Below the pieces are notes generated by a model, which saw only the letters and a list, made by a program, of their open reading frames with translations, searched no databases and was not told the origin of the DNA. A DNA stretch of 64,000 bases from NCBI GenBank assembly GCA_045807625.1, contig JBJMHA010000063.1, positions 1,481 through 65,480 on the forward strand. The letters run 5' to 3'. How positions within the stretch are numbered: the stretch's first letter is position 1; each line of letters begins with the position of its first letter. The position numbers and the translations under genes were made by a program. Source of the stretch: Thermoanaerobaculia bacterium (GTDB lineage: Bacteria; Acidobacteriota; Thermoanaerobaculia; Multivoradales; UBA5704). Below, one piece after another: positions 3,976-55,740 of this stretch.

Positions 3976-4067
3976 GGCCGCCAAGAGCGCGCTTCCGGTG
4001 CCCTGTTGTGGCCGGAGGCGCGCTTGTATATTCGATGTATTGAAATAAGTATTTCGGAGGGTTCGAG

Positions 4068-4853: not shown

Positions 4854-4891
4854 CGAGAGCCTTGGAACCCCGCGTCACCTTCCGTCCCATC

Positions 4892-28177: not shown

Positions 28178-28326
28178 GCGGTTCCTCGCGATTGGATCGG
28201 GTTCAGGGGGTACGACGAGACCGGACGGCGATTCAAGATCGGCGCCAACCTGGCCGGGAGCGCGAGCGAGCGCCCGCACTCAAGGGTGCGGTGCGGGCCC
28301 CAAAAGGTGACAGGACTATAACCGGG

Positions 28327-34031: not shown

Positions 34032-34126
34032 GATGCTTGTGTTACCGCGAATCCATGGTACCGCAAGAGGGCGCCGCGGTCCAGCGTCCCGTCGATCGCC
34101 CGTTACTTGGCCTCGTTCTTGGCCGG

Positions 34127-35434: not shown

Positions 35435-35503
35435 GATCTCCCCACGGCGGGCATGCCCGGGTGCTGCGAGGGCTCCGCTGTCGAAGGCGTTCGGGTCGGC
35501 GCC

Positions 35504-38497: not shown

Positions 38498-38558
38498 GGG
38501 AGAATGGTAGCAGGGATCGCGAATTCGCCGATTCCCGAGACCTCGTATCCTTCTCCCC

Positions 38559-39740
38559 ATGCCCTCCACCGCCCTCCGCTTCCGGCCGCCGCGCCTGGCC
38601 TACACCCCGGAGGCCCGCTGGATGCTGCTGCGCGCCTTCGGCCCGGCCGGCGCGCCGTTCCCCGGAGCTTTCGATCCGGCGGCGGCGCTGGCCCTGGCAC
38701 GCCGGTTCGAGGTGGCGGCGCGGATCGCCGTCCGCCAGGGGCGGGAGCGGTTGCGGGCCGAGGTGGGGGAGGAGGCCGCGGCCGGCTTCGCCCGCGACCG
38801 GGCGCGCGCCGCGGCGGCCGGGATGCGGCTGATGGAGGAGGTGCGGCGGGTGGCGGCGGTGGCGGCGGAGCTGGGGGTGCCGCTCGCCTGCCTCAAGTTC
38901 GCCGCCCTGGAGGGGACGGGGCTCCTCGCCGCCGGCAGCCGGGGGGCCTGCGACGCCGACCTGCTGGCGCCGGGCGAGCGCGCGGAGGAGCTCTGGCGGG
39001 CGCTGGCCGCCGCCGGCTTCCAGGGCTCGGGCCTCCCCGAGGCCGAGCACCAGCTCGCGGCGCTCAAGGGGCCCCAAGGGGGGGTGATCGAGATCCACCG
39101 CCACCTCCCCGGCGTCCGCCTGGAGGGTGGGGCCTCGGCCACCTTCGAGGCGCTCGACCGCGCCGGGCTGCTCCTCCCGCTGCCGGACCTCCCCGGCCGC
39201 TGCGCGGCGCCGGCGCCGGCGGTGACAGCCGCCCACGTGCTGGTCCACGGCCTGGGGCAGCACGGCTATTGGCCGTCCTCCTATTCGCTGCTCAAAATGG
39301 CGGCCGACCTGCTCGACCTCGGGTCCCTGACCGGCCGCGCCGCCGCCTGGGTGGAGCGGGACGTCTCCGCGGCGGAGGTGGCGGCGGTGCGCCGGCTGCT
39401 GGAGCGTCTGGCGGCCGGCGAGGATCCCGCCGAATGGACGGGGCCGGAGGAGGAGCTGCTGCGGCACATCCTGGCCGGCCGCCTCGACAAGGAGTACGCG
39501 GGCTCGCTGCGGCTGGGGCTCTTCCGCCCGCAGCCGAGCGAGCGCTCGCGGCCGGCGCAGCTCGCCCGCGCCGTGCTCGGCGCCGTCTTCCTCACCGACG
39601 CCCAGATCGACGCGGTCTACGGCCGCCCCCGCACCCGCCTGGGCTACCTTGGCCGGCGGCTCGCCCGTCCCTTCGATCTGCTGCTGCGGCTGGGGAGCTA
39701 CGGGGCGCGCTGGGCCCGGCTGAGACGAGGGCGGAGCTAG
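38559..39740 (+). CDS. Nucleotidyltransferase family protein (uncharacterised NTP_transf_5 / PF14907-like), copy 1
   Basis: LKFAALEGTGLLAAGSRGACDADLLAP matches the hG[GS]...D.DLL nucleotidyltransferase motif. A paralog lies at 49922. Confidence 0.7.
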   Translation: MPSTALRFRPPRLAYTPEARWMLLRAFGPAGAPFPGAFDPAAALALARRFEVAARIAVRQGRERLRAEVGEEAAAGFARDRARAAAAGMRLMEEVRRVAAVAAELGVPLACLKFAALEGTGLLAAGSRGACDADLLAPGERAEELWRALAAAGFQGSGLPEAEHQLAALKGPQGGVIEIHRHLPGVRLEGGASATFEALDRAGLLLPLPDLPGRCAAPAPAVTAAHVLVHGLGQHGYWPSSYSLLKMAADLLDLGSLTGRAAAWVERDVSAAEVAAVRRLLERLAAGEDPAEWTGPEEELLRHILAGRLDKEYAGSLRLGLFRPQPSERSRPAQLARAVLGAVFLTDAQIDAVYGRPRTRLGYLGRRLARPFDLLLRLGSYGARWARLRRGRS

Positions 39741-42546: not shown

Positions 42547-42998
42547 GGGGGCGCACCCTGGCGGGGCTCCTCACCGTCCTGCTCGCCCTGGCGATGGCCG
42601 CCCAGACCGTCCGCTGGCGCGACCGTATGATGGCGAGCCGCCTGCTGGCCAACGCCGAGGCGCTCACCCTGGCAGTGGCCGCCGGCCAGATCCCCCCGGC
42701 GGCCCTGGCGGACAACCTGAAGGCGCTGCGCCGGGCGGCGGATCTCGATCCGGTGCAGGTGGGCATCCCCATCGCCCGCGGCAGCCAGTACCTCCTGCTG
42801 GGCCGCGCGGAGCCGGCCGAGCAGGTCTATCTGGAGGCGCTGCGGCTGGAGCCCAAGTCGGAGGTCTATCTCGACCTCGGACGGGCGCAGTGGCTGGCCG
42901 GCCGCAGGGAGGAGGCGCTGCGCAATTTCACCCTGGCCGTGCGGCTCGACCCCGGGCTGGTCCGCGTCCTGCCCAACGAGGCGGCCGGGGCGCCATGA
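42543..42998 (+). CDS. Small TPR-like hypothetical protein
   Basis: GTG start overlapping the ligase stop. Helical repeats (EQVYLEALRLEPKSEVYLDLGRAQWLAGRREEALRNF). Confidence 0.4.
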   Translation: MRGRTLAGLLTVLLALAMAAQTVRWRDRMMASRLLANAEALTLAVAAGQIPPAALADNLKALRRAADLDPVQVGIPIARGSQYLLLGRAEPAEQVYLEALRLEPKSEVYLDLGRAQWLAGRREEALRNFTLAVRLDPGLVRVLPNEAAGAP

Positions 42999-43390
42999 CC
43001 GCGCGGGAGCCCGATCCGCGGGTCTTCGCGGCCCTGCGCGACCTCGCCCACGAGGGGCCGGTCGAGGTGACGGTGCGCGGCGGCTGCATGGCCCCCGGAC
43101 TGGCCGACGGCGGCCGCGTGCGGGTGGCCGCCGCCCGCGTCTACCTGCCCGGCGACGTGGTGGTGTTCCGCGCCGCGGACGGCCGCCTGGTGGCCCACCG
43201 GCTCCTCGGCTACCGCCCATGGGGCCGCCGGCTCGCCCTGGTGACCCGCGGCGACTCCTGCCCCGTGCACGACGCTCCCGTCCTCCTGGCCGCCGTGCTC
43301 GGCCGGGTGGAGGCGGCAGCTCCCACCGCCCTGGCGCGGCTGCGCGCCTCCTGGCGCTTCCTGGGCCTCGCCCTGCGCCGGCGGCGATGA
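42995..43390 (+). CDS. S24/S26 peptidase-like beta-barrel protein, non-canonical (Cys in place of nucleophile Ser, no Lys)
   Basis: VRGGCMAPGLADGGRVRV...GDVVVF follows the LexA/signal-peptidase GDSMxP...GD(I/L)V pattern. ATGA-coupled to the previous gene and to the hprK-like gene. Confidence 0.6.
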   Translation: MTAREPDPRVFAALRDLAHEGPVEVTVRGGCMAPGLADGGRVRVAAARVYLPGDVVVFRAADGRLVAHRLLGYRPWGRRLALVTRGDSCPVHDAPVLLAAVLGRVEAAAPTALARLRASWRFLGLALRRRR

Positions 43391-44304
43391 GCTTCGGCGG
43401 CGGATTCCTCCGCCATCCCGACCTCTTCCCGGCCCGCCGGTCCGGCGAGCCCTGGGGGGACCGCGCCGTGGCCCTCGACGTGGCCGGCGGCCCCTATCTC
43501 CTCTCCGGCCTCGCCGCCCCGCAGGAGGAGGCGCTGCGCCGTCGCTTCGGCCCCCTGTGCGGCCCGGCGGAGGCGGAGGGGACGGTGACCGCCAGCGCGG
43601 TCTTCCGGGCCCCGGCGGCCGATTTCCTGCCGATCGACACCCGCGGCTGGGAGTACACCCTCGACCTCGACCCCGCTCCGGGCGCGCTGCGGGTCGCCGG
43701 CCTCCACCTGATGGCCCGCCTGGACTGGACGCCCGCCCTCGCCGGCGCCCTCTGGACCCCCCGGACGGAAGGAGAGGAGTGGGCGTCGGTCTGCGAGAAC
43801 TACCTCCGGATGCTGACCGCCTACCGCCTCCTGGAGCAGGGGGGCGCGCTGCTGCACAGCGCCGGGGTGAGCGACGGCGAGGCGGCCTGGCTCCTCCTCG
43901 GCCCCTCGGGCGCCGGCAAGACCACCGCCTCCCGGCTCTGCCTGGCGGGAGGGGCCACCGTCCTCTCGGACGACCTCAACGCCGTGCTCTTCGCCGGGGG
44001 GGAGGCCCGGCTCCGCAAGCTCCCCTTCACCGGCGACCTCGGCGAGCGCGCGGGGGGACCGGAGAGCGTCCCCCTGCGCGCCGTGCTGCGGCTGGCTCAG
44101 GGGGAGGTGGAGGGGCTGCGCCGGCTCTCCCCGGCGGCGGCTCTCGCCGCCCTGGTGGCCGCCTCTCCGTTCGTCAACCGCGACCCCTGGCGCCGGGAGG
44201 CGCTGCTCGCCGTGCTCGAACGGCTCGCCCGCGCCGTCCCCGCCTGGGAGGTGACGTTCTCCCGGGAGGGGGAGCTGTGGGGGATGCTCAAGGCGATTCG
44301 GTGA
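43387..44304 (+). CDS. HprK-related serine kinase, type A (HPr kinase C-terminal domain-like)
   Basis: P-loop LLLGPSGAGKTTASRL. Overall length and layout match the stand-alone HprK-like kinases seen in lasso/RiPP clusters. Confidence 0.75.
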   Translation: MSFGGGFLRHPDLFPARRSGEPWGDRAVALDVAGGPYLLSGLAAPQEEALRRRFGPLCGPAEAEGTVTASAVFRAPAADFLPIDTRGWEYTLDLDPAPGALRVAGLHLMARLDWTPALAGALWTPRTEGEEWASVCENYLRMLTAYRLLEQGGALLHSAGVSDGEAAWLLLGPSGAGKTTASRLCLAGGATVLSDDLNAVLFAGGEARLRKLPFTGDLGERAGGPESVPLRAVLRLAQGEVEGLRRLSPAAALAALVAASPFVNRDPWRREALLAVLERLARAVPAWEVTFSREGELWGMLKAIR

Positions 44305-44324
44305 GGCGGTCCCCCGCCCGATCC

Positions 44325-44369
44325 GACCGATTCGACCGATTCGACCGATTCGACGGGTCAGACCGATCA
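44325..44369. repeat. 9-bp tandem repeat (gaccgattc x3 plus two degenerate copies) in the hprK-A / pqqD intergenic region
   Basis: Copies at 44325, 44334 and 44343. Degenerate copies gacgggtca and gaccgatca follow. Confidence 0.6.
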
Positions 44370-44412
44370 CGCCTCAGAGGGCAAGAGGAGCTATACTCCG
44401 CTCCATACCCCC

Positions 44413-44712
44413 ATGAGCGACATCACTCCAGCGACCGTCCTCCGGAGGCGGTCCGACGTGCGCTACCGCCGGATCGAGGGGGAGGCGGTGGTGCTCCGCC
44501 AGGCCGCGGCCGAGGTGCTGGTGCTCAACGAGGTCGGCGCCTCGGTGCTCGACCTGGCGGACGGCGAGCGCTCGGTGGGGGAGTGGATCGACGCCCTGGC
44601 GGACGAGTACGAGGGGGATTCCGGGACCCTCGCCCATGACGTGCTCGCCTTCGCCGCCGAGCTCGCCGAGGCCGGTCTGCTGGAGCCGGTCGACCCGGAG
44701 CGGCAGCCGTGA
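44413..44712 (+). CDS. PqqD family protein (RiPP recognition element / peptide chaperone)
   Basis: 99 aa, MSDITPATVLRRRSDVRYRRIEGEAVVLRQ...VLNEVGASVLDL..GERSVGEWIDALADEY, the typical PqqD fold signature. Confidence 0.8.
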   Translation: MSDITPATVLRRRSDVRYRRIEGEAVVLRQAAAEVLVLNEVGASVLDLADGERSVGEWIDALADEYEGDSGTLAHDVLAFAAELAEAGLLEPVDPERQP

Positions 44713-45800
44713 GCCTGTCGCGGGTGGTCGCCGCCGCCTGGCGGGAGAACCTGCTGTTCTCGGTCCTCCTGGAGCTGACCTACCGCTGCAACCTCGACTG
44801 CTTCTTCTGCTACAACGACGTCGGATTGCGCGGCGAGCCGCTCTCCCGCGAGCAGTACTTCCAGCTCCTCGCGGACCTGCGGGAGATGGAGGTGATGAAC
44901 CTCACCCTCTCGGGGGGGGAGCCGCTGGCCCATCCGGACTTCGTGGCGCTGGGGGCGCGGGCGCGGGAGCTCGGCTTCGTGGTGCGGGTCAAGTCCAACG
45001 GCCACGCCCTGCGCGGCGAGCTCGCCCGCCGGGTGCGCGACGAGGTCGACCCCTTCCTGATCGAGGTCAGCCTCCACGGCGCCACCGCCCCCACCCACGA
45101 CCGCCAGACCCGCGTGCCGGGGAGCTTCGACCGCCTCGTCGCCAACCTGCGGGAGCTGCGGGAGCTGGGTCTGCGGGTGAAGCTCAACAGCACGCTCACC
45201 CGCTGGAACGAGGGGGAGATCGAGGGGATGTTCGCCCTCGCCGATGCGCTCGGCCTGCCGCTCCAGGTCGACCCCGAGGTGACGCCGCGCGACGACGGCG
45301 GCCGCGAGCCGCTCCAGGTGGCCCCCAGCCCCGAGGGGGTGCTCCGCCTCTTCCGCCTGCAGTTCGCGCGGGGGAGGGCGGCGGAGGAGGGAAAGCCGGA
45401 GGTCCAGGTGGCGCGCGGCGGCGGCGACGGCACCGTGCCCGTGCCGGTCCACAAGCACTGTGGCGCCGGCTCTTCCGGCATCGCGGTCGATCCGTTCGGC
45501 AACGTCTACCCCTGCGTGCAATGGCGCCGGCCGGTGGGGAGCCTCCACCATCAGAGGATCGGCGAGATCTGGCGGGGGTCGGCCGGCCTCGCCGAGGTGC
45601 GCGATCTCACGGTCCAGGTGAAGGAGCGGATCGGCGCCGAGGGGCCGGGGAGCCACCTGCTCAACTTCTGTCCCGGCTCGGCCGCCGCCCACGCCGGGGA
45701 TCCGCTGGCGCTCTACCCCGCGGCGGTGCAGCGCCGGGAGATCCTGGAGCAGGTGATGGGGGAAGAGGGGAAGAGGCCGCTGCTGCCGGTGGTGCGCTAG
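44709..45800 (+). CDS. Radical SAM / SPASM-domain peptide-modifying enzyme
   Basis: CNLDCFFC (CxxxCxxC) N-terminal cluster, and C-terminal Cys-rich SPASM region (HCGAGSSGIAVDPFGNVYPCVQW, NFCPGSAAAH). Translationally coupled to pqqD. Confidence 0.85.
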   Translation: MSLSRVVAAAWRENLLFSVLLELTYRCNLDCFFCYNDVGLRGEPLSREQYFQLLADLREMEVMNLTLSGGEPLAHPDFVALGARARELGFVVRVKSNGHALRGELARRVRDEVDPFLIEVSLHGATAPTHDRQTRVPGSFDRLVANLRELRELGLRVKLNSTLTRWNEGEIEGMFALADALGLPLQVDPEVTPRDDGGREPLQVAPSPEGVLRLFRLQFARGRAAEEGKPEVQVARGGGDGTVPVPVHKHCGAGSSGIAVDPFGNVYPCVQWRRPVGSLHHQRIGEIWRGSAGLAEVRDLTVQVKERIGAEGPGSHLLNFCPGSAAAHAGDPLALYPAAVQRREILEQVMGEEGKRPLLPVVR

Positions 45801-46304
45801 AGGTTACGAGGAGATCGGCCCCGAGGGGCAGAGGCCAGGGTTCCCCTTGGCGGGAGGGGAGGGGGCGCACACGGCCGCCACCGCCTCCAGCGGCTCGCGG
45901 GAGAGGACGCGGGGCCGCTCCCAGGGCCGCTTCGCGCGCGCGCCGGTCTCTCCGGGAGTCTGTGGCTTCGAGGGTCCGCTCCGCATTCCTCTTCTCAGGC
46001 GCTCCGCCGAGCTTGCGCGACGGGCGATTCTTCATTTCTACGTCGATCTGAGACTAAGCCCCTGTGAGGGATGTGTCAAGCTGGGCCCCAAAACCGGATA
46101 TCTCAATATTTAAGCCTATTTAGGACCAAAGGGATGCGGCACGGACGATTTTACCGTCCCGCTGCGGGAAGATGGGGCAAAAATTTTATAGCCATTCTTC
46201 AAAAAGCTGACGGTTCCGTCTGAGATTCCGGGCGTCCGAAGAGGGGACCACCGCTGCTTTGTTCTGGCCCACCTCTTGCAGTGGAGGTCTGGCGGCTTGG
46301 ATCA

Positions 46305-46320
46305 AGGCACACCCGCTGCG
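46305..46320 (+). promoter_or_regulatory. Candidate sigma-54 (-24/-12) promoter upstream of the secreted-protein / lasso-like operon
   Basis: aGGCACacccgcTGCg with GG and GC spaced 12 nt apart (46306-07, 46318-19). It lies 240 nt upstream of the 46560 start. Confidence 0.35.
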
Positions 46321-46559
46321 AGGCGGGGCCGCAAAGCCAGGGGTCTCCCGCCGAGATCGCCCGGTCGCCGAAAAGCCCTCAAAGGCACGTAGTCACGCGT
46401 AGCTCAGCAGGGGGCAGCTTTCATGGTACCGGGTCTCGATTCACCGCCGTTCCTCCCATCCAGCAGAGCTCCGTAGCGGGACCGCGCAGAGCGGCTCCGT
46501 AGTCTTTTTTTGTGCTGAGAAAAACCGATTGGATCCACCGACAAAAAGGAGAGCTGACA

Positions 46560-48011
46560 ATGAGTTTCCATCGGAAGATGACCTTGATGATCCTGGCGCT
46601 GCTGGCCTTCTCGGCGGCCGCCAACGCCACCCAACTCGGGCCGTTCATCGATCTCCAGGAGCAGGGGCTCTCGATGACCCACGACGGCCATGGGCTCTGG
46701 ACCTGGGGCGGCGGCCCGGTGAGCTTCAACGTCACCATCGGCGGCCCGGTGCGCTTCGCCCTGCTCTACTGGGCGGGCCGCGAGCGGCCGTGCACGCTCG
46801 ACGGCAGCGGCACCAACTGCCCGTTCACGCAGCCTTACAAGGACCAGGTGCTGAATTTCAACGGTGCTCCGATCACCGGCACCGTGATCGGCTCCGAGAC
46901 CCAGCCGACCAGCGGCGGCGGCCCGATCCTCAACGTGGGCTACTACGCCGACGTCACGGGCATCGTCTCCGCGGCGGGCACCGGGCCCCAGTCGTTCACG
47001 CTGACCGACGGTGACACGTCGAGCAATTTCTGGCGCTTCGACGGCGCCGCCCTGCTCGTTGCCTACAAGGACGGCACGAACCTCGACACCTACCGCATCC
47101 TCGTCCAGGACGGCCTGGACTTCGCCTACGGCGACGACCCCACCCCCGGTGACAACCGGGTGACCGCGCCGGTCACCTTCAACCATGGCGTCAACTTCTC
47201 GAACCGCACGGCCGACCTCCTTCTGTTCGCGGGAGACGGCGACGCCGACCGGCCGGACAACACCACGATCAGCAACAACCCGACGCTGTTCAACATCCTC
47301 AACTCGACGCAGGGACCGGAGTACAACACCGTCCTGACGCCGATCAGCATCCCCTCCGGCGCCGGCACCACCACGGTGCAGATGAACTCGGCGCCCGCCG
47401 GCCAGAACCCCGATTCGCTGCTCTGGGAGCTGGCCGCCCTGCGCGTCCAGCAGCTCGACATCGCCGGCGCGACCTGCCCGGCGCGGGTCATCGCCGGGCC
47501 GCCGACCCAGCTCCAGGTGACGGTCTCCGACGTCAACACCGGCATCCAGAGCATCGTGGTGACCCAGTCGGACAACGCCGACACGCCGGTGCCGCCGTTC
47601 ACCGTCGGCACCACCGACCCGGTGACCATCACCGCCACCAAGATCAACCAGTCGCAGCCCGCCCACGTCACCATCCAGGTGACCGACCTGGCCGGCAACA
47701 CCGTCACCTGCGACCCGGTGATCACGCTGATCCAGCGCAGCTCCAAGGAGGATCCGCAGCAGAACCGCCTCCGGGTGCCGGCTGAGGAGAGCAAGATCCA
47801 GATCATGAACGGCGAGCCGGGGCTCCGGACTTTCACCGCCCTGGTCAACGGCGTCACCTTCAAGGTGACCGGCCTGCGCAACAACGAGGTGCGTACCCTC
47901 GACGTCTCCTCGGCGATGCGCGCAGGCAACAAGAACATCGTCTACGTCAAGGGGCATGGCCCGCAGAACGCCTCGGCCACGGTGGTCCTCTCCGACGGCT
48001 CCGTCCAGTAG
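46560..48011 (+). CDS. Secreted Thr/Asn/Gly-rich protein of unknown function
   Basis: RBS aaaggagag. Signal peptide MSFHRKMTLMILALLAFSAAANA. No recognisable catalytic motifs. Confidence 0.65.
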   Translation: MSFHRKMTLMILALLAFSAAANATQLGPFIDLQEQGLSMTHDGHGLWTWGGGPVSFNVTIGGPVRFALLYWAGRERPCTLDGSGTNCPFTQPYKDQVLNFNGAPITGTVIGSETQPTSGGGPILNVGYYADVTGIVSAAGTGPQSFTLTDGDTSSNFWRFDGAALLVAYKDGTNLDTYRILVQDGLDFAYGDDPTPGDNRVTAPVTFNHGVNFSNRTADLLLFAGDGDADRPDNTTISNNPTLFNILNSTQGPEYNTVLTPISIPSGAGTTTVQMNSAPAGQNPDSLLWELAALRVQQLDIAGATCPARVIAGPPTQLQVTVSDVNTGIQSIVVTQSDNADTPVPPFTVGTTDPVTITATKINQSQPAHVTIQVTDLAGNTVTCDPVITLIQRSSKEDPQQNRLRVPAEESKIQIMNGEPGLRTFTALVNGVTFKVTGLRNNEVRTLDVSSAMRAGNKNIVYVKGHGPQNASATVVLSDGSVQ

Positions 48012-48102
48012 GCGGAAGACGACGGCACGAATCTTGAATTGAAGCCCGGCATACTCCCGGAGGATGTATGCCGGGCGCCTTTCCAACAAGGAGGATCGTT
48101 CC

Positions 48103-48180
48103 ATGGTCAAGAAGGCGTACAGAAGGCCGTCCCTACGGCGTCTGGGCCTGCTGCGGCGGGTCACCCGGTTCAGCTTTTAG
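48103..48180 (+). CDS. 25-aa basic peptide with lasso-peptide leader motif (leader-only / decayed precursor)
   Basis: MVKKAYRRPSLRRLGLLRRVTRFSF* with a strong RBS (aaggagga 8 nt upstream). Y6, P9, L11, G15 and T21 fit the YxxPxLxxxGxxxxxT leader consensus with Thr at -2, leaving only FSF as core. Lies immediately upstream of the PqqD/B2 genes. Confidence 0.5.
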   Translation: MVKKAYRRPSLRRLGLLRRVTRFSF

Positions 48181-48272
48181 CCACGGCTCCGGACTGTCTT
48201 TCGCCGGTGAGGTCTACCGGACCTCTCCGGCTTCTCTTTGCCTGGCGGGCTTTCGCGGCCCCGGAGGGATCG

Positions 48273-48554
48273 ATGATCGACGCGCAGAGCCGCCCCCGCC
48301 ACCGGGAGCGGGTGCTGACCCAGACGGCGGCCGGGACGCTGGTCCTGCTCGACCTCGACGGCGGGCAGTACTACTCCCTCGACGAGGTGAGCGCCCGCGT
48401 CTGGGAGCTGTGCGACGGCGAGCACGGCGTGGAGGGGATCGTGGAGGCGATCAGCGCCGAGTACGACGCCCCGGCGGAGACGATCTACGAGGACGTCCTG
48501 GCGTTCCTCGAGGAGATGCTGGATGAGAAGCTCCTGGTCGTCGAGGGCGCGTGA
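48273..48554 (+). CDS. PqqD family protein (lasso B1-like RRE), copy 2
   Basis: MIDAQSRPRHRERVLTQTAAGTLVLLDLDGGQYYSLDEVSARVWELCDGEHGVEGIVEAISAEYDAP. RBS ggaggg. Confidence 0.75.
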   Translation: MIDAQSRPRHRERVLTQTAAGTLVLLDLDGGQYYSLDEVSARVWELCDGEHGVEGIVEAISAEYDAPAETIYEDVLAFLEEMLDEKLLVVEGA

Positions 48555-48960
48555 GCCCCTCCCGGAGACCCTCCTCCCCGTCCGCGTGATTCTTTTCGCG
48601 GCGCTGGTGCCGCTGCTCCTGCGGCTCTGCAGGCTCCCCCGCCTGCGGGCCTGGGTCGAGCCCCGGCGGCGGTCCCCCGCGCCGCCCGGCCCTGAGGAGA
48701 TCGAGGCGCTGACCCAGCGGATCGACGAGCTCCTGATCGCCGGCCGGCCGGCGGTCCGCACCGGCTGTATGGTCCGCGGCCTCACCCTCTACCGCTTCCT
48801 CCGCCGGGCGGGCGCGGACGTCTCCCTCCGCTTCGGCGTCGGCACCATCCGCGGCAACTTCGCCGCCCACTGCTGGATCGTCTACCAGGGCGAGCCCCTG
48901 GCCGAGACGCACGACCCCCGCCCCCTGTTCACCGAGACCTGGAGGATCGAGCCCGCGTGA
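48523..48960 (+). CDS. Transglutaminase-like cysteine protease, lasso B2-type (PF13471-like)
   Basis: C...H...D triad context CMVRGLTLYRFLRRAGADVSLRFGV...GNFAAHCWIVYQGEPL resembles the McjB C-terminal domain. Overlaps the PqqD gene end (alternative GTG start at 48586). Confidence 0.7.
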   Translation: MRSSWSSRAREPLPETLLPVRVILFAALVPLLLRLCRLPRLRAWVEPRRRSPAPPGPEEIEALTQRIDELLIAGRPAVRTGCMVRGLTLYRFLRRAGADVSLRFGVGTIRGNFAAHCWIVYQGEPLAETHDPRPLFTETWRIEPA

Positions 48961-49925
48961 GCGATCGCGCCTACCTTCTGCACGGAGTACGGCTCGGCGT
49001 GCTGGCCACGGGCGAGGGGGAGAAGGCCGCCGCGGGGGTCCACGCGCGGCTGGCCGGCCTGCCGCTCGACGGCGGCCCCCCCTGGGACGTCACCTTCGAG
49101 ATCCAGGCCGCCGGGAGCCACGCCTTCGAGCGCCCGGAGGCGGCGCGGCCGGTCTACGATCCGCCGCTCGGCGAGGTGGTCTACGACGACGCGGCCGACC
49201 GGCTCTTCATCGGCTACGGCCCCCGCCTGCGGGTGCTCTGCGAGCCCGGCCGCGGCCGAGCCCGGGCCTCGGCGGCGGGGATGGCGGAGGAGGACCTGTG
49301 GTCTCTCTCCCACCCCCTGTTCACCCTGCCGCTGGTGGAGCTGCTGAAGCGCCGCGGCCTCTACGGCCTCCACGCCGGGGGCGTCTGCCGGGGCGGCCGC
49401 GCCCTGCTCCTGCCCGGCACCAGCGGCTCGGGGAAGTCGACCCTCACCCTGGCGCTGGCGCGGGCGGGCTTCGATCTGCTGGGCGACGATACCCTCTTCC
49501 TCGCCCGCCGGCCCGGAGAGGCGCCGCGGGTCCTCGCCTTCCCGGATGAATTCGACCTCACCGGCCAGACCGTCTCGTTCTTTCCCGAGCTCGCCCCCCT
49601 GCTCGGCGGGCCGGCCCCGGCGGGGTGGCGCAAGCGGCAGGTGCGGGCCGAGCGGGCCTACGGGGCGCCGGTGGCCTGGGAGTGCGCTCCGGCGGTGCTG
49701 GTCTTCCCCCGGGTGGCCGGCGTCCCAGAGAGCGAGCTGACCCCCCTGAGCGCCGGGGAGGCGCTGCTGGAGCTCGTCCCCAACGTGCTGCTGACCGAGC
49801 CCCGCTCCTCCCAGGCCCACCTGGACGCCCTGGCCGAGCTGGTGGCGGCGAGCGAATGCTTCCGCCTGGCCACCGGGACCGACCTGGAAGCGGCGGCGCG
49901 GCTGGTGGGAGGGCTGCTGCCGTGA
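48957..49925 (+). CDS. HprK-related serine kinase, type B
   Basis: P-loop LLLPGTSGSGKSTLTLAL. GTG start overlapping the B2 stop. Paralogous to the 43387 gene. Confidence 0.75.
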   Translation: MSDRAYLLHGVRLGVLATGEGEKAAAGVHARLAGLPLDGGPPWDVTFEIQAAGSHAFERPEAARPVYDPPLGEVVYDDAADRLFIGYGPRLRVLCEPGRGRARASAAGMAEEDLWSLSHPLFTLPLVELLKRRGLYGLHAGGVCRGGRALLLPGTSGSGKSTLTLALARAGFDLLGDDTLFLARRPGEAPRVLAFPDEFDLTGQTVSFFPELAPLLGGPAPAGWRKRQVRAERAYGAPVAWECAPAVLVFPRVAGVPESELTPLSAGEALLELVPNVLLTEPRSSQAHLDALAELVAASECFRLATGTDLEAAARLVGGLLP

Positions 49926-50968
49926 CCCGCGAGGACCGCCTCCTCTGCCTCTGCGCCCGGCAGGAATTCCTCACCGGACACCGCCGGGCGGTGGAGGAGC
50001 TCTGCCGCGGCGCCGCCGTGCGCTGGAGCCGCCTGGCCGCGGCGGCGGAGCGGCACGGGGTGCTCCCCATCGTGGGGGCCAACCTCCGGACGTGCGACGC
50101 CGGCCTGCCGGAGGATCTCGCCGTCCGCTGCGAGCTCGCCGTCCTCGAGAACGCGGCCGTCCGCGAGCGGGACGCCGACCGCCTGGCCGACGGGCTCGCC
50201 CGTTTGCGCGAGGTCGAGCTGGAGGCGATGCTGCTCAAGGGGACGGCTCTCGCGCTCTCCGTCTACACCGAGCCCTGGGTGGTGACCTCGCAGGACATCG
50301 ACCTCGTCCTCCGCCCCACCGGGCCGGGGTGGGCGAAGGGGAAGGGGAGGGAGAAGGAGGTCCGCCGCGCCCTCTATACGAACGGCGTCGAGTGCGACCT
50401 CGAGACCCACCACGACGTCACCATGAACGGCGTGCTGCCGGTCGACTTCGCGCGCATCTGGCGCGAGGCGCGGCCGGTGGGCTTCCGCGGCGTGCCCGCC
50501 TGGAGGATGTCCCCCGAGGACCTGCTGATCTCCCTCTGCGTCAACTGCTGCCGCAAGCGCTTCCGCCTCAAGGGGGTGTTCGACGTCGCCGAGACGCTGC
50601 GCCGCGGGGAGCCCCTCGACCAGGGGCGGCTGGGTGTCCTGGCCCGCGAGGGGCGGTGCGAGGGGATCGTCTACGCGGCCCTGGTGGTGGCTCGGGGAGC
50701 GCTCGACGCCGGGCTGCCGGCGGGGTTCCTGGAGCCTCTGGGGGTCTCGCCGGTCCGGGCGGCCCTGCTGCGGTCCCTGGCCGCGGCCTTCCTGGGCGCC
50801 GCCCCCTTCACCGGCCGCTCCGGCCGTCCGCTGGCCCTGGCCCTCGCCTACGCGAGCCTCCGGCCGGCCGAGGCCTGGAGGTCCGTCCGCTACAGCCTGA
50901 CCCATCCGGACAAGCACAAGGGGGAGGACCCGCAGGCTCCGGCGCAGGCGGCGGTCGCGGGTTCGTAG
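49922..50968 (+). CDS. Nucleotidyltransferase family protein (PF14907-like), copy 2
   Basis: MLLKGTALALSVYTEPWVVTSQDIDLVL motif. GTG start overlapping the kinase stop. Confidence 0.7.
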   Translation: MTREDRLLCLCARQEFLTGHRRAVEELCRGAAVRWSRLAAAAERHGVLPIVGANLRTCDAGLPEDLAVRCELAVLENAAVRERDADRLADGLARLREVELEAMLLKGTALALSVYTEPWVVTSQDIDLVLRPTGPGWAKGKGREKEVRRALYTNGVECDLETHHDVTMNGVLPVDFARIWREARPVGFRGVPAWRMSPEDLLISLCVNCCRKRFRLKGVFDVAETLRRGEPLDQGRLGVLAREGRCEGIVYAALVVARGALDAGLPAGFLEPLGVSPVRAALLRSLAAAFLGAAPFTGRSGRPLALALAYASLRPAEAWRSVRYSLTHPDKHKGEDPQAPAQAAVAGS

Positions 50969-51004: not shown

Positions 51005-52495
51005 ATGAGAGCCATGGCGCGCCACGACGCCCTCATCGCCGAGAAGCGGCGGATCCTCCAGCTCGAGACCCTCTACGACCTGGCGATCGCCCTCCACGCG
51101 CAGGGTCCGGAGCAGGAGCTGGTCGACGAGCTGCTGCAAAGGGTCTGCGCCGTGCTCGATCCGGCGGCGGCCGTGGCGGTCACCCGCGACGCCTATGGCG
51201 GGGCCCGCGGGGTCGCCTCGGTCGGCTGGCTGGACGACCTGCCCACGGGGGACGCCCTGCTGGCGGCCCCGATCTGGCGGGAGCTGCTGACCGAGGGGCA
51301 CACGCTTGTCCGCGCGGGCGGCGAGCTGGCCGGCCGCCCCTACGAGCAGCTCCTCGCCGCCCCCCTCTCCTACCGCGGCGTCTTCCTGGGCTACGTCGCC
51401 GTGCTCGACAAGGAGGTGCGGGGTGACTCGGACCACTCCTTCACCCCCGACGACCGGCGCTTCCTCGACTCGGTGACCGCCCTCGCCGGCGCCGCCCTCG
51501 ACGCCGCCCGCCAAGTCGAGCGCCTGGAGACCCAGCGCGAACGGCTGGAGGAGGAGAACAAGGCCCTCAAGGGGCGGCTCGCCCAGGAGGTCGCGGGGCG
51601 GCGGATCGTGGCCCTGGCGCCGCCGATGCGCCGCGTGCTGGACGTCATCGAGCGGGTGGCGCCGCGCGGCGTCAGCGTCCTGGTGCGGGGGGAGAGCGGC
51701 ACGGGCAAGGAGCTGGTGGCGAAGCTCCTCCACCACCTCTCCGGCCGCGGGGGGGCGCTGATCGCCGTCAACTGCGCGGCCCTCCCCGAGTCGCTGCTGG
51801 AGAGCGAGCTCTTCGGCATCGAGGGCGGAGTCGCCACCGGCGTCCAGGCGCGGCCGGGAAAGTTCGAGCTGGCCGACCGCGGCACCCTCTTCCTCGACGA
51901 GATCGGCGACATGCAGACCTCCCTCCAGGTGCGGCTCCTGCGGGCCCTCCAGGAGCGCGAGGTCACCCGCGTCGGCGGCCGGCGGCCGATCCCCGTGGAC
52001 GTGCGGCTGGTCGCCGCGACCCACCAGGACCTGGAGGCGCTGATCGGCGACGGCCGCTTCCGCGAGGACCTCTACTACCGCCTCAAGGGGGTGGAGATCG
52101 AGCTCCCCCCGCTGCGCGAGCGCAAGCAGGACGTCCCCCACCTGGTGCGCGCCTTCGTCGAGGAGTTCTGCCGCCGGGAGGGGATCCCGGTCCCGGCGTT
52201 CCGCTCGGAGGCGCTCGCCCTGCTGCTCGCCTACGACTTCCCGGGCAACGTCCGCGAGCTGCAGAACGTGGTCGAGGGGGCCGTCTCCCTGGCCGACGGC
52301 GAGATCGGCGCCGAGCTGATCCGCTCCCTGCTCGCCGCGCCCCCCGCCCAGCAGACCGCCCCCGAGGCGCTCGACCTCGTCACCCTGGAGCGCCGCCATA
52401 TCGCCCGCGTCCTCAAGCTGACCAACGGCAACAAGAGCGAGGCGGCGAAGATTCTCGGGCTCGACCGCAAGACGTTGCAGCGGAAGGGATACTGA
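51005..52495 (+). CDS. Sigma-54-dependent transcriptional activator (GAF - AAA+ sigma-54 interaction - Fis-type HTH)
   Basis: Walker [15 protein letters not shown] motif, [16 protein letters not shown], and a C-terminal [18 protein letters not shown]. Confidence 0.85.
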
Positions 52496-53337: not shown

Positions 53338-53772
53338 ATGCCTGAAGGCGTTTTGAGAGCCGTCGAGCTGGCGCTGCCGATGGTCCCCGAGATGGAGATC
53401 GAGGCGAGCAGGACCGCGACCGCGATCGCCGAGTGGATCGGGATGAGCCCCGACCGCATCGACGAGGTCAGGATGGCGGTGGTGGAGGCCTGCATCAACG
53501 CCTTGGAGCACAGCCACGCCTCCGACCGCGAGGTCTACGTGACGTTCCAGGTCCTGGGGGAAGGGGGGGACCCGGAGAAGCTGCGCATCATGGTCCGCGA
53601 CACCGGGATCGGTTTCTCCCCGAATGTCGTCGAGGAGCCCACGATCGAGGGTAAGATCAAGGCGGTGCGCAAGCGCGGCTGGGGTCTCAAGATCATCCGC
53701 GGGCTCATGGACGAGGTGGAGATCCTCTCCGGCGCCGACGGCACGACTGTCGTAATGAGTAAGATGCGATGA
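53338..53772 (+). CDS. Anti-sigma factor / serine-protein kinase (RsbW/SpoIIAB-like, HATPase_c)
   Basis: N-box VEACINALEHSH, G-boxes DTGIGF and GWGLKIIRGLMDEV. Confidence 0.8.
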   Translation: MPEGVLRAVELALPMVPEMEIEASRTATAIAEWIGMSPDRIDEVRMAVVEACINALEHSHASDREVYVTFQVLGEGGDPEKLRIMVRDTGIGFSPNVVEEPTIEGKIKAVRKRGWGLKIIRGLMDEVEILSGADGTTVVMSKMR

Positions 53773-53785
53773 AAGCGGGGGCGAG

Positions 53786-54136
53786 ATGACCGAGAGCCTC
53801 AACATCACCGTGGATCGACGCGAAGGGCTGGCGGTGATCTATACGGAGGGGTATATCAACAACCAGGGGGGCGAGGAGATCGCCAAATCGGCCTACAAGC
53901 TCCTCGACGAAGGCTACAAGACCCTCCTCCTCAACCTGGCGGGGACGAAGATCGTCAACTCGATCGGCATCTCCATCCTCATCGAGATCATCGAGAAGAT
54001 GATCGAGATCGAGGGCAAGCTGGGATTCTGCTGCTTGACTCCGACCATCGAAAAGACCTTCCATATCATGGGCCTCGCGCAGTACGCTCCCATCTATCCG
54101 GATGAGGCGACCGCGGTGGCGCAGATGCGGTCCTGA
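53786..54136 (+). CDS. Anti-sigma factor antagonist (STAS domain, RsbV/SpoIIAA-like)
   Basis: 116 aa. LLLNLAGTKIVNSIGISILIEI carries the conserved phospho-Ser region. Confidence 0.85.
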   Translation: MTESLNITVDRREGLAVIYTEGYINNQGGEEIAKSAYKLLDEGYKTLLLNLAGTKIVNSIGISILIEIIEKMIEIEGKLGFCCLTPTIEKTFHIMGLAQYAPIYPDEATAVAQMRS

Positions 54137-54156
54137 CTTTTCAGTAGGAGACATCC

Positions 54157-55740
54157 ATGGAGGGTACGCCGCGCGCCGGCGGGGCGGCGCAGGCCTGGGA
54201 CGAGCTGCTGACCCTCTCCCGCGACGAGGCGAGCGAGCGCCAGATGCTGGAGCGCCTGCTCGACCTCTGGCGGCGGGAGCACGGCGCCGAGGCGGCCGGG
54301 CTCTATCTGGAGCGCGGCGGGCTGCTGCACCAGGAGAGCGCGGCCGGAGGGCACCTCCCCGAGGTGATCGAGGGGGCTCCGGCCGACGGCCTCGGCAGCC
54401 TCGCCTTCCCGGGCGGCCGGCTCCTGGTCTCCCCTTCCACCGCCGCGGCGGCGGCCACGGCGGCCGACCCCCTGACGCTGCTCCTCGCCTCGGCGCTCAA
54501 GAGCTGCCGGCTGAAGGCCGAGCTCAAGGAGCAGCAGTTCCAGGTCAACTACCGGGTGGTGGAGCTGGAGGCCCTCTACGACGTGGGGCTGGCCGTGGCC
54601 TCCACCCTCGACCTCGACCGCCTCTCCGAGGAGATCCTGCTGCGCGCCGTCTCCCTGCTCGACGCCCGGCGGGGCGCCCTCTACATCCTGGAGGACGGCC
54701 GCTACCGCCTGGACCGCACGTTCGGCGGCGAGGCGGCCCCCTGGCTCTCGGGCGAGGACCCGGGGCTGCGCCGGTTCCTCACCGACGGCGGCGAGGCGCC
54801 GCCCCACCTGCTGCCCGGCGCGCGGTACCTGCTGGGGGTGCCGATCGAGGTCGAGAGCGGCCCCCGCGGGCTGATCGCGGTGGGGGACAAGGAGAGCCGC
54901 CGGGGCGTCGGCCCCTTCCTCACCTCGGACCGCCGCACCCTCGCGCTGTTCGCCAACCAGGCGGCGCTGGCCCTGGAGAACGCCCGTCTCCACCTCCAGG
55001 CGCTCGAGAAGGAGCGGCTGGAGCGCGAGATGCACCTCGCGGCCGAGATCCAGCGCCGCATCCTCCCCAAGGGCTCTCCCGCGGTGTCCGGCTACGAGCT
55101 CCTCGGCTGGTACCGCCCGGCGCGCCAGGTGGGAGGCGACTACTACGACCTCTTCCGCCGCGACGACGGCCGGGTGGGCCTGGTGGTGGGCGACGTCTCG
55201 GGCAAGGGGATGCCGGCGGCCCTCCTGGTGTCGACGCTCCACTCGGGCCTCCGCCTGCTGCTCGACCAGATCGGCTTCGGCCCGGCGATGCTGGAGCGGC
55301 TGAACCGCCACATCGGGGACTACAGCGCCGCCAACAAGTTCATCACCATGCTGCTGGCCGAGCTCACCCCCGAAACCGGGGTCCTCCATTACATGAACGC
55401 CGGGCACAACCCCGGGATCCTGCTGCGGCTCGACGGCAGCGCCGAGGAGCTGGCGCCCGGCGGCGTCCCGCTCGGGTTGATCTCCGGCGCGCGGTACCAG
55501 TCCCGGATGGTGACGCTGGCGCCGGGAGACCTCGTCTGCCTCTACAGCGACGGCATCACCGAGGCCGCCTCGCTGGCCGACGAGGAGTTCGGGATGGAGC
55601 GTCTGATCGACCTCCTCCGCGCCGAGCGCGACCGCCCCCTGGAGGAAGTGATCGAGGCCATCACCCACGTGGTCGGCGAATTCTCCCAGGGTCTCCCCCA
55701 GGGGGACGACCAGACGCTGGTGCTGCTGCGGCGGGGGTAG
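54157..55740 (+). CDS. PP2C-family serine phosphatase with GAF domain (RsbU/SpoIIE-like)
   Basis: Central GAF region, then C-terminal PP2C motifs GGDYYD, GDVSGKG and YSDGITEA. Confidence 0.85.
   Translation: MEGTPRAGGAAQAWDELLTLSRDEASERQMLERLLDLWRREHGAEAAGLYLERGGLLHQESAAGGHLPEVIEGAPADGLGSLAFPGGRLLVSPSTAAAAATAADPLTLLLASALKSCRLKAELKEQQFQVNYRVVELEALYDVGLAVASTLDLDRLSEEILLRAVSLLDARRGALYILEDGRYRLDRTFGGEAAPWLSGEDPGLRRFLTDGGEAPPHLLPGARYLLGVPIEVESGPRGLIAVGDKESRRGVGPFLTSDRRTLALFANQAALALENARLHLQALEKERLEREMHLAAEIQRRILPKGSPAVSGYELLGWYRPARQVGGDYYDLFRRDDGRVGLVVGDVSGKGMPAALLVSTLHSGLRLLLDQIGFGPAMLERLNRHIGDYSAANKFITMLLAELTPETGVLHYMNAGHNPGILLRLDGSAEELAPGGVPLGLISGARYQSRMVTLAPGDLVCLYSDGITEAASLADEEFGMERLIDLLRAERDRPLEEVIEAITHVVGEFSQGLPQGDDQTLVLLRRG

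Follow-up and report, generated by a model that had tools for sequence, protein, structure and literature searches.

The window analyzed here is a stretch of 64,000 nucleotides of contig JBJMHA010000063.1 (GCA_045807625.1), from a Thermoanaerobaculia metagenome-assembled genome (MAG). Within an exopolysaccharide (EPS) locus in this window lies a compact operon that starts with a 25-codon gene, here called pepA, encoding MVKKAYRRPSLRRLGLLRRVTRFSF. It is followed by genes for a discrete PqqD protein (B1), a leader peptidase (B2), an HprK/ScmC-like kinase (K), and a PF14907 nucleotidyltransferase (NT), whose reading frames overlap as if translationally coupled. The coordinates of these and associated features are collected in the table. 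Below, L numbers designate individual related loci used for comparison.

Features of the pepA locus (positions in the window) and the sequence evidence for each
Feature	Position	Strand	Description	Evidence
Second cassette	42995..45800	+	Archaeal-type signal peptidase I (S26; 42995..43390), ScmC/HprK-like protein (43387..44304), PqqD (PqqD2; 44413..44712), radical SAM/SPASM (44709..45800)	Resembles an LPP enzyme set; S26 protein matches TIGR02228 at 38 bits against a cutoff of 52
Riboswitch	46297..46373	+	c-di-GMP-I-GGC aptamer upstream of the DUF3344-like gene	56 bits, E 6.8e-12, gathering score 59
DUF3344-like gene	46560..48011	+	Secreted protein, predicted all-beta	AF2 model with pLDDT 80; only generic beta-sandwich/CBM/Ig matches
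sigma54-like element	48024..48038	+	-24/-12 element GGCACG-N4-TTGAA, between the DUF3344 stop codon and pepA	Single match in the window, not significant on its own
Upstream hairpin	48044..48077	+	GC-rich; either terminator of the upstream gene or 5' stem-loop of the pepA transcript	-30.4 kcal/mol, z = -3.0
Shine-Dalgarno sequence	48088..48094	+	AAGGAGG, 8 nt before the pepA ATG	GGAG-type RBS present in the orthologues
pepA	48103..48180	+	25-aa precursor; ATG at 48103, TAG at 48178-48180; residues 1-22 lasso-type leader, residues 23-25 FSF tail	Not called as a gene in the public record (no gene called between the DUF3344 gene and B1)
Downstream hairpin	48203..48240	+	Terminator-like hairpin plus T-rich tract directly after pepA; probably a partial terminator that sets the precursor-to-enzyme ratio	Homologous hairpin GCCGGCGAGG..CCTCGCCGG+TTCTCTTT in most orthologues
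B1	48273..48554	+	Discrete PqqD-type RiPP recognition element (RRE), 93 aa	PF05402, 5e-23; lasso_PqqD_Bac, 1e-13; TbiB1 (5V1U) E 3.9e-9, PbaB1 (9X90) 1.9e-8, LppB (9X8Z) 2.3e-4
B2	48523..48960	+	Transglutaminase-fold cysteine leader peptidase, 145 aa; start may instead be the GTG at 48586	NF033537 lasso_biosyn_B2, 64.9 bits against a cutoff of 33; PF13471
K	48957..49925	+	HprK/ScmC-like P-loop Ser kinase, 322 aa	TIGR04352, 1.6e-16, below cutoff; homologues carry PF27840 ScmC and PF07475
NT	49922..50968	+	PF14907 "uncharacterised nucleotidyltransferase", PsmN/LppN-like tailoring enzyme	PF14907, 1.4e-28
sigma54 activator	51005..52495	+	GAF-domain sigma54-dependent transcriptional activator directly downstream of NT	Same position in L001, L002, L008, L009, and L084

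A preliminary description of this sequence had reported a strong ribosome-binding site and a lasso-type leader signature ending after only three further residues, and this observation is confirmed. With T21 taken as position -2, Y6, P9, L11, and G15 fall at -17, -14, -12, and -8, as had been stated. The strict motif Y..P.L...G.....T. occurs once in the six-frame translation of the window, compared with 0.015 expected occurrences per window in 200 first-order Markov simulations, and a relaxed motif covering lasso and linear polyphosphorylated peptide (LPP) leaders, [YW]xxPx[LVIFA]x9Txx[ST], also occurs only here. A sequencing error restoring a normal core, in particular at the T-run before the stop codon, and orthologous loci encoding a normal lasso precursor had been named in advance as the outcomes that would overturn the observation, and neither was found. 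Reading through the TAG gives only PRLRTVFRR before a TGA, and a -1 shift at the T-run gives no lasso-like core. Orthologues have TTC TAG or TTC TGA at this spot and hence no T-run, yet they stop at the same place, and a sequencing error is therefore excluded.

In 19 syntenic copies from Acidobacteriota MAGs, found through kinase synteny and thus independently of the peptide, the ORF always ends in [VI]TRFSF plus a stop (TAG or TGA), with many synonymous changes. A leader-based metagenome scan recovered at least 89 distinct relatives; the pattern used fixes two Leu codons as CTN and so misses TTR variants. Among these 89, Thr is at -2 in 82, Phe at +1 in 67, and Ser or Thr at +2 in 77, with the S-to-T swap keeping the hydroxyl. 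A three-residue tail (FSF or FTF) is present in 54, whereas the rest show a continuum of longer His/Trp-rich tails, most of which lack Asp/Glu at positions 7-9. Invariant residues are encoded by 4 to 7 different codons, and pS is 0.55 against a pN of 0.17; although these sequences were partly selected by motif, the 19 synteny-derived copies show the same picture. The same stop position appears in more than 100 independent assemblies, and the family spans Acidobacteriota, Verrucomicrobiota, and other soil lineages. No peptide was recognizable with three relaxed motifs in L019 to L022, L024, L027, and L028, whose precursors may lie elsewhere or be too diverged. pepA itself had no hit in NCBIfam or Pfam, whereas long-tail relatives score 16.5 to 17.9 bits on NF033521 lasso_leader_L3 (cutoff, 19).

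The catalytic residues of the downstream enzymes are conserved. In 75 homologues, C82 and H116 of B2 are invariant and E128 is at least 85% conserved; Walker A (G154-T162) and G176-D177-D178 are conserved in K, as is the DxD motif in NT. Searches of B2 and K against PDB sequences gave nothing useful, K yielding only a P-loop match to HprK at E 0.45, while the best PDB match of B1 is TbiB1. The kinase family comprises 271 clusters (50% identity) at E<=1e-30. In contrast to lasso pathways, no Asn-synthetase-like cyclase (Asn_synthase, PF00733) was found by Pfam searches of every coding-like ORF of at least 400 aa in the window. None was found in the Pfam-annotated or Pfam-scanned related loci either, that is, among called genes within 8 to 10 kb in L027 to L030 and L151, among genes flanking the cassette in L066, L088, L099, L106, L116, and L143, and downstream of K in eight long-tail loci. 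In the remainder of the about 35 related loci, only cassette synteny was mapped by tblastn, which cannot detect a cyclase. Because this is a MAG, of which only the window was examined, a cyclase elsewhere in the genome is not excluded, but it could not cyclize a three-residue core in any case.

The surroundings of the operon are conserved to different degrees. The sigma54-like element lies 67 to 83 nt upstream of the pepA ATG in 18 of 20 orthologous copies. The upstream hairpin is present in the orthologous copies other than L004a, with compensatory arm changes, whereas L017, L018, and L026 lack the hairpin downstream of pepA. The riboswitch was found in the same place, above gathering score, in 11 of 11 orthologous loci; in distant lineages, it was found only in L030 and not in the Verrucomicrobiota-type or long-tail loci, and it is therefore a lineage-specific feature. 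The DUF3344-like gene lies directly upstream of pepA in at least 61% of testable loci, and the pair is duplicated in L004, L119, and L133. The second cassette is adjacent in 12 of 18 Acidobacteriota loci, either about 3 kb upstream or, in L015, L018, and L026, directly downstream of NT. It is absent within about 6 kb in L004, L006, L013, and L016 and from all distant relatives, which keep pepA-B1-B2-K-NT. It has no precursor of its own in the window, as the relaxed motif scan found only pepA and the small ORFs in 45800..46500 look like noise.

The closest known system is that of the LPPs of Bacillota (Popov et al., Nat Commun 2026, PMC13381572), which are cyclase-less linear relatives of phosphorylated lasso peptides. 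LPP clusters lie in capsule loci and encode a discrete PqqD-type RRE, an HprK-like kinase, and an "uncharacterised NTP transferase," and the pepA operon has this combination; we infer the equivalence of LppN and PF14907 from their names, as no sequences were compared. LppK polyphosphorylates core Ser3 of linear precursors carrying YxxPxVLxHQxIxFETxxS, and pepA has the identical Y0-P3-[VL]5-T15-S18 spacing (Y6, P9, L11, T21, and S24). However, only this skeleton is shared: the HQ, I, and FE positions differ, and the precursor has 25 aa, compared with 35 to 200 aa for LPPs, whose characterized core is 45 aa; here the core is 3 aa, or 4 aa if the cut is after Thr. LPPs use an archaeal-type signal peptidase (LppS), which cuts after T-1, whereas the pepA operon has B2 instead; the S26 protein scores below its profile cutoff and belongs to a separate, inconsistently linked cassette, which leaves it undecided whether an LPP-type leader peptidase is part of this system. 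The MsbA-like exporter of LPPs has no counterpart here, as no ABC transporter lies between pepA and the sigma54 activator, and long-tail relatives are followed by a Polysacc_synt_3 flippase instead. In addition, LPPs are reported as restricted to Bacillota, and B1 is closer in sequence to TbiB1 and PbaB1 than to LppB.

Other systems share subsets of these features. Bsf-type phosphorylated lasso peptides (Duan et al. 2023, PMC10368454) have the gene set A, B1, B2, K, and N and YxxPxL at -17 to -12, and BsfK phosphorylates core Ser3 with help from B1 and accepts S3T; however, Bsf has a lasso cyclase, an ABC exporter, a normal Gly1...Asp8 core, and Ile at -2. In paeninodin and pseudomycoidin tailoring (Zyubko et al. 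2019, PMC6993621; review, PMC9266682), an HprK-like kinase acts on the linear precursor and an uncharacterized nucleotidyltransferase is needed to add hexose to the phosphoserine (PsmK and PsmN add phosphate and then hexose), but the target is the C-terminal Ser of a full lasso core, a cyclase is present, and the leaders are of the WxxP type. Canonical lasso precursors and their recognition by B1 (TbiB1-TbiA, 5V1U/5V1V; NF033521 and NF033537) share with pepA the leader motif Y-17, P-14, L-12, G-8, T-2 and the split B1/B2, but pepA has no accompanying cyclase, no Gly/Ala/Ser/Cys at core position 1, no Asp/Glu at positions 7-9, and a core too short (canonically about 13 residues or more) to form a ring. 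In the HprK-related kinase A system and the SynChlorMet (Scm) cassette (TIGR04352, TIGR04249, and PF27840 ScmC), which have no assigned function, a P-loop HprK-like protein lies next to a PqqD homologue, and in the second cassette also next to radical SAM/SPASM enzymes. All hits to these models are well below the curated cutoffs (60 bits against 200, and 23 bits against 125), and these systems are not described with a lasso-type leader peptide or a B2 protease. Very short-core RiPPs such as biarylitides and triceptides have functional cores of about three residues rich in aromatics, but they use P450 or radical SAM cross-linking enzymes and unrelated leaders and have no B1/B2, kinase, or nucleotidyltransferase; this resemblance was not tested here. 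Literature searches on the peptide strings, ScmC, PF14907, and DUF3344 returned nothing relevant, and no paper in the literature searched describes B1/B2 operons without a cyclase.

The interpretation first placed on the peptide, a naturally encoded leader without a core in front of B1/B2, of a kind not previously described, is partly supported. The leader is indeed of the lasso type recognized by an RRE, and the peptide really ends three residues after the canonical cleavage site. However, the tail F-[S/T]-F is under strong constraint, and its Ser/Thr is nearly universal across the relatives, including those with long tails, so that the tail is best read as a minimal core carrying the modification site. 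The operon, with a kinase and a nucleotidyltransferase but no cyclase, is not a lasso pathway. Moreover, since LPPs are a closely analogous cyclase-less family, the claim of novelty holds only for this B1/B2-dependent variant with a tripeptide core, which differs from LPPs in using B2 instead of a signal-peptidase-like protease, in occurring in other phyla, and in its minimal core.

We consider it somewhat more likely than not that pepA is the genuine, minimal precursor of a cyclase-less RiPP pathway derived from lasso machinery. In this view, B1 would bind the leader through Y6, P9, and L11 and would help K to (poly)phosphorylate Ser24, the only constrained hydroxyl, three residues after the conserved Thr21. 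NT would further decorate the phosphoserine with a hexose or a nucleotide, and B2 would cut after Arg22, releasing a decorated linear Phe-Ser-Phe tripeptide without a macrolactam ring. The comparative data demonstrate that the gene is real and under purifying selection, that the leader is lasso type, that the enzyme set and its catalytic residues are conserved, and that the cyclase is absent from the window and from the related loci as far as they were scanned; phosphorylation at Ser24, decoration by NT, the cleavage site, and the biological role are inferred by analogy only. No chemistry was observed, phosphorylation was not measured, and the B1-pepA complex was not modeled. Several points weigh against this model. 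In LPPs, a signal-peptidase-like enzyme makes the cut after the Thr, and because such an enzyme is encoded 5 kb upstream, the released peptide could be RFSF rather than FSF. Lasso-associated kinases of the paeninodin type act on a C-terminal Ser, whereas here the Ser is penultimate. The operon has no exporter, the tight pairing with the DUF3344-like protein is not explained, and the leader, with nine Arg/Lys residues, could itself be functional. The module appears to be transcribed from a sigma54-type promoter next to a c-di-GMP-riboswitch-controlled secreted protein, which, together with the EPS setting, points to a role in biofilm or matrix biology.

A less likely possibility is that pepA is mainly, or additionally, the substrate of the second cassette. 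The signal-peptidase-like enzyme would then cut after Thr21, as LppS cuts after T-1, releasing RFSF, and the radical SAM enzyme would cross-link the aromatic-X-aromatic tail, for example, as a three-residue cyclophane. This reading is favored by the lack of any other precursor for that cassette in the window, by its frequent adjacency, including the loci in which it is fused directly downstream of NT, and by the T-x-x-S spacing, which equals that of LPP precursors. FSF formally fits the aromatic-X-X motif of triceptides, and a PqqD plus radical SAM/SPASM pair is at hand, although cross-linking was not assayed and neither a radical SAM substrate motif nor a family-specific model was applied. 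Against it, the cassette is missing from several loci and from all distant relatives, and pepA is always linked to B1/B2. Extending this reading, and about as unlikely, pepA may be a shared substrate of the two RRE-dependent enzyme sets, yielding a phosphoglycosylated, possibly cross-linked aromatic tripeptide. Such a product would serve as a sigma54-controlled anchor, primer, or signal that ties a ribosomal peptide to exopolysaccharide or matrix assembly, perhaps through the DUF3344-like protein; it would be the smallest RRE-dependent RiPP core known and a new link between RiPPs and biofilm polysaccharides.

It is also unlikely, though slightly more so, that the functional part is the cationic 22-residue leader or the whole 25-mer, with FSF only a recognition handle or leaving group. 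B2, which has a transglutaminase fold, might act as a transpeptidase moving the leader onto an acceptor such as the DUF3344-like protein or a polysaccharide, or the peptide might act in trans as an activator or adaptor for B1-dependent enzymes. The leader is unusually basic and more conserved than needed for the YxxPxL contacts (RRLGLLR is invariant), and the peptide is conserved, and has been duplicated, together with a secreted protein. However, F23, S/T24, and F25 are as constrained as the leader, relatives elaborate the tail while keeping the leader, as expected of a leader-plus-core RiPP, and no characterized B2 in the literature acts as a transpeptidase. A cis-regulatory role, in which translation of pepA would control the downstream terminator hairpin and thus expression of B1-B2-K-NT by attenuation, is suggested only by the order of short ORF, hairpin, and operon and is very unlikely. 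Conservation is at the amino acid level and matches an RRE-binding motif, some loci lack the hairpin, and the peptide gene is convergent with the enzyme operon in L038, L043, L055, and L086, separated from B1 by the NT gene in L023, L025, and L076, and duplicated away from B1 in L004, L119, and L133. Finally, an assembly error or a decayed lasso precursor in a cluster that lost its cyclase, which the missing cyclase and short core might suggest, is refuted by the shared stop position with both stop codons in use, the excess of synonymous change, the intact catalytic residues of all four enzymes, and the spread of the family across at least Acidobacteriota and Verrucomicrobiota.

Overall, lasso leader-recognition and leader-cleavage machinery has been repurposed, repeatedly and on a large scale, for products that cannot be lassos. 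Such clusters are skipped by standard lasso mining tools, which require a cyclase, and the 25-codon ORF is skipped by gene callers. The reduction of the core to three residues gives an unusually simple system in which to ask what B1, B2, HprK-like kinases, and the enigmatic PF14907 "nucleotidyltransferases" actually recognize and make. The constant placement in EPS loci, next to a sigma54 promoter/activator pair and, in this lineage, a c-di-GMP riboswitch, makes the proposed link between these peptides and biofilm formation, which the LPP authors raised only as speculation, directly testable. The recently described linear phosphorylated peptide idea now extends from Bacillota to abundant soil Acidobacteriota and Verrucomicrobiota, which use a different peptidase.

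The ORF, which we call pepA, is exactly as the preliminary description had it, encoding MVKKAYRRPSLRRLGLLRRVTRFSF behind an AAGGAGG sequence that lies 8 nt before the start codon (see table for coordinates), and that observation therefore held. With T21 placed at -2, residues Y6, P9, L11, and G15 fall at -17, -14, -12, and -8. The motif is unlikely to be present by chance, as the strict form Y..P.L...G.....T. occurs once in the six-frame translation of the window, whereas 0.015 occurrences per window are expected in 200 first-order Markov simulations. The ORF lies about 90 nt upstream of a PqqD gene on the same strand, in a window of about 72% G+C, and is not called in the annotation of the Thermoanaerobaculia (Acidobacteriota) MAG.

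To ask whether pepA is a truncated gene, we searched one genome per species with the downstream kinase, a query that is independent of the peptide, and obtained 26 loci (these and the other loci are labeled L plus a number here). In all 18 Acidobacteriota loci with upstream sequence, an ORF of 22 to 25 codons lies between the same upstream gene and B1, and because locus L004 has two copies, 19 copies are represented in total. Every copy ends in ...[VI]TRFSF followed by TAG or TGA. Orthologues read TTC TAG or TTC TGA at this point, so the T-run in this window is incidental. Synonymous changes are abundant, and in a larger set the invariant Leu, Arg, Gly, and Thr positions are encoded by 4 to 7 different codons, with a pS of 0.55 against a pN of 0.17; although that larger set was partly selected by motif, the 19 synteny-derived copies show the same picture. 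Two outcomes had been put forward in advance as fatal to the observation, namely, a sequencing error hiding a core of 13 or more residues and orthologous loci encoding a normal lasso precursor at this position, and neither was found. The gene is therefore real and conserved and is not a truncation.

We then scanned metagenome contigs with a back-translated leader pattern, K..Y.[KR]P.L[RK][RK]LG[LV]L[RK], which matched at least 120 loci, all of the matches being short ORFs. Pooling of all sequences gave 89 distinct peptides, with Thr at -2 in 82, Phe at +1 in 67, and Ser or Thr at +2 in 77 (64 Ser and 13 Thr). A tail of exactly 3 residues is present in 54 of them, mostly FSF or FTF, with a few LSF, YTF, and FYF. 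The metagenome scan is conditioned on the leader pattern, and the metagenome loci carry no taxonomy; in addition, seven kinase-containing loci yielded no recognizable peptide. The remaining peptides form a continuum of longer tails that usually begin with FS and are rich in Gly, His, and Trp, such as FSGQPGHHHWWW, FSWSNHHRGWW, FSDWNDPHQPPHHWWLG, and VSGSGGSWHWCWW, and most of the long tails lack Asp/Glu at positions 7 to 9. In L041, L049, L066, L074, L099, L102, L116, L143, and L145, relatives with the same leader carry Gly/His/Trp-rich tails ending in WW or WWW (for example, FSGQPGHHHWWW and VSGSGGSWHWCWW), a composition that suggests metal binding or membrane/surface anchoring. Flanks were mapped in four of these loci (L066, L074, L116, and L143), where the same B1-B2-K genes follow, with NT after K in L066, L116, and L143. 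Long-tail relatives nearly reach the NCBIfam lasso leader model NF033521 (16.5 to 17.9 bits, against a cutoff of 19), whereas pepA itself gives no hit.

A Verrucomicrobiota type reads ...LKS[AV]AGS..W.., and a genome of 46% G+C (GCA_900174565.1) encodes MKTKKVYTKPRLKKLGLLRLLTRFTF. Verrucomicrobiota-type homologues (L023, L025, L076, L105, L110, and L128) have an N-terminal extension of roughly 30 residues with a conserved RDQ and the gene order peptide-NT-B1-B2-K; in L023 and L025, no ATG, GTG, or TTG lies near the conserved part, so the start codon is unclear there. FSF is therefore the commonest and most reduced member of a leader-plus-variable-core family and not a coreless oddity. Thus, the preliminary interpretation of a lasso-type leader encoded without a core was only partly supported.

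Features of the pepA locus and of related loci (coordinates are those of the window unless a locus is named; strand in parentheses where recorded)
Feature	Coordinates	Identity or score	Conserved active-site residues
AAGGAGG	48088-48094		
pepA	ATG at 48103, TAG at 48178-48180		
B1	48273..48554	PqqD, PF05402 5e-23; nearest solved structures TbiB1 (E 3.9e-9), PbaB1 (1.9e-8), and LppB (2.3e-4)	not assessed
B2	48523..48960	NF033537, 64.9 bits against a cutoff of 33	C82, H116, E128
K	48957..49925	HprK/ScmC-like; homologues carry PF27840 and PF07475	Walker A G154-T162; G176-D177-D178
NT	49922..50968	PF14907, 1.4e-28	DxD
sigma54 activator gene	51005..52495 (+)	GAF-AAA+-HTH	
sigma54-like -24/-12 element	48024..48038 (+)	GGCACG-N4-TTGAA	
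c-di-GMP-I-GGC riboswitch aptamer	46297..46373 (+)	RF03167, 56 bits against a gathering score of 59, E 6.8e-12	
mgtC leader (weak Rfam hit)	46536..46632 (+)	30 bits against a gathering score of 48, E 0.004	
DUF3344-like protein and small peptide gene, behaving as a unit	46560..48011 (+); L004 1503..3064 and 3522..5161; L119; L133		
Second RRE-dependent cassette	42995..45800 (+)	archaeal-type signal peptidase I, ScmC/HprK-like P-loop protein, PqqD, and radical SAM/SPASM	
Verrucomicrobiota-type homologues	L023 1991..2143; L025 3630..3777; L076; L105; L110; L128		
Partner-switching module	53338..55740 (+)	anti-sigma-type HATPase_c kinase, STAS protein, and GAF-SpoIIE/PP2C phosphatase	
G+C-rich stretch	34000..38600	about 78% G+C	
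Wzy_C domain frame	34034..37015 (+)	Wzy_C	
582-aa frame	36851..38599 (-)	no Pfam hit	
871-aa frame	34127..36742 (-)	no Pfam hit	
Fused ATP sulfurylase/APS kinase; second PF14907 nucleotidyltransferase paralogue	26384..28279 (-) and 38511..39740 (+)		

Four overlapping genes (B1, B2, K, and NT) follow pepA downstream. The listed active-site residues are conserved across 34 to 95 homologues that go down to 23 to 40% identity, and the kinase GDD corresponds to the metal-site Asp pair shown to be essential in PsmK. The kinase family comprises 271 clusters (50% identity) at E<=1e-30, and all named members are annotated as "hypothetical protein."

No lasso cyclase was found with these genes. An Asn-synthetase domain was absent from every coding-like ORF of at least 400 aa in the window and from the called genes within 8 to 10 kb in loci L027 to L030 and L151. 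A cyclase elsewhere in the genome is not excluded, but it could not act on a 3-residue core. In the eight long-tail loci mapped by tblastn, the order is pep-B1-B2-K, and a Pfam search of the downstream ORFs of five of them showed an NT gene in four and a Polysacc_synt_3 flippase in three.

The surrounding genes form an exopolysaccharide (EPS) locus, with Wzy, Wzz/tyrosine kinase, flippase, CpsB, and ATP sulfurylase/APS kinase. The fused ATP sulfurylase/APS kinase suggests a PAPS supply for a sulfated polysaccharide, and a second PF14907 nucleotidyltransferase paralogue is also present in the same EPS locus. One extremely G+C-rich stretch has long overlapping open frames on both strands, of which only a Wzy_C domain was recognized, so gene content is unresolved there. 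A few genes downstream of the pepA operon lies a partner-switching module that is syntenic in L001, L002, L009, and L084.

A secreted DUF3344-like all-beta protein is encoded directly upstream of the peptide gene in at least 67 of 110 testable loci (at least 61%) across phyla, including Verrucomicrobiota-type loci, and the pair is tandemly duplicated in L004, L119, and L133. The predicted fold of the protein gives only generic beta-sandwich, CBM, or Ig matches, and we have no explanation for this pairing. About 190 nt upstream of the DUF3344-like gene lies a c-di-GMP-I(-GGC) riboswitch, which scores above the gathering score at the same position in 11 of 11 orthologous loci, and each of the two DUF3344-pepA copies in L004 has its own aptamer. 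The expression platform was not worked out, and among distant lineages, the riboswitch was found only in L030. A weak hit to the mgtC leader that overlaps the start of the DUF3344-like gene is probably due to chance. Between the DUF3344 stop codon and pepA lies a conserved sigma54-like element, GGCACG-N4-TTGMA, present in 18 of 20 orthologous copies; in most copies the -12 element reads GA rather than GC, although some lineages have the canonical GC. It is followed by a hairpin that shows compensatory changes, and a GAF-domain sigma54 activator is encoded directly after NT.

Among known systems, the closest are the linear polyphosphorylated peptides (LPPs) of Bacillota (Popov et al. 2026, PMC13381572). 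LPP clusters sit inside capsule loci and encode a discrete RRE (LppB), an HprK-like kinase (LppK), an uncharacterized NTP transferase (LppN), an archaeal-type signal peptidase acting as leader peptidase (LppS), and an exporter, but no cyclase. LppK polyphosphorylates core Ser3, and LppS cuts after T-1. The LPP precursor motif is YxxPxVLxHQxIxFETxxS, and pepA is colinear with it, with Tyr, Pro at +3, Leu/Val at +5, Thr at +15, and Ser at +18 represented by Y6, P9, L11, T21, and S24. The authors state that LPPs are restricted to Bacillota and call them linear analogues of phosphorylated lasso peptides. In Bsf-type lasso peptides, a lasso-cluster kinase phosphorylates core Ser3, a step that B1 accelerates and in which S3T is accepted (Duan et al. 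2023, PMC10368454). In the case of pseudomycoidin, a PsmN-type nucleotidyltransferase is needed to add hexose to the phosphoserine (Zyubko et al. 2019, PMC6993621).

The comparative data establish the gene, its conservation, and its enzyme set, whereas all of the chemistry proposed here is inferred by analogy. In the most likely mechanism, B1 would bind the leader, K would phosphorylate Ser24, NT would decorate the phosphate, and B2 would cut after Arg22 to release a modified Phe-Ser-Phe. The Ser-to-Thr substitution seen in relatives is what a hydroxyl-directed modification predicts. The cleavage site is uncertain, however, and if cleavage follows the LPP rule and occurs after Thr, the product would be RFSF. 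As an alternative, the second RRE-dependent cassette, which looks like the LPP enzyme set of Bacillota plus a radical SAM enzyme, may share pepA as a substrate; no precursor of its own was found in the window. This cassette is adjacent in 12 of 18 Acidobacteriota loci and is fused directly downstream of NT in three of them (L015, L018, and L026), but it is absent from distant relatives.

No B1/B2-type cyclase-less system was found to have been described, on the basis of full-text searches of open-access literature only, whereas cyclase-less linear phosphorylated peptides as such are already known from the LPPs. The present family is therefore a variation on the latter kind of system that keeps the lasso B2 protease, occurs in other phyla, and has shrunk the core to three residues.
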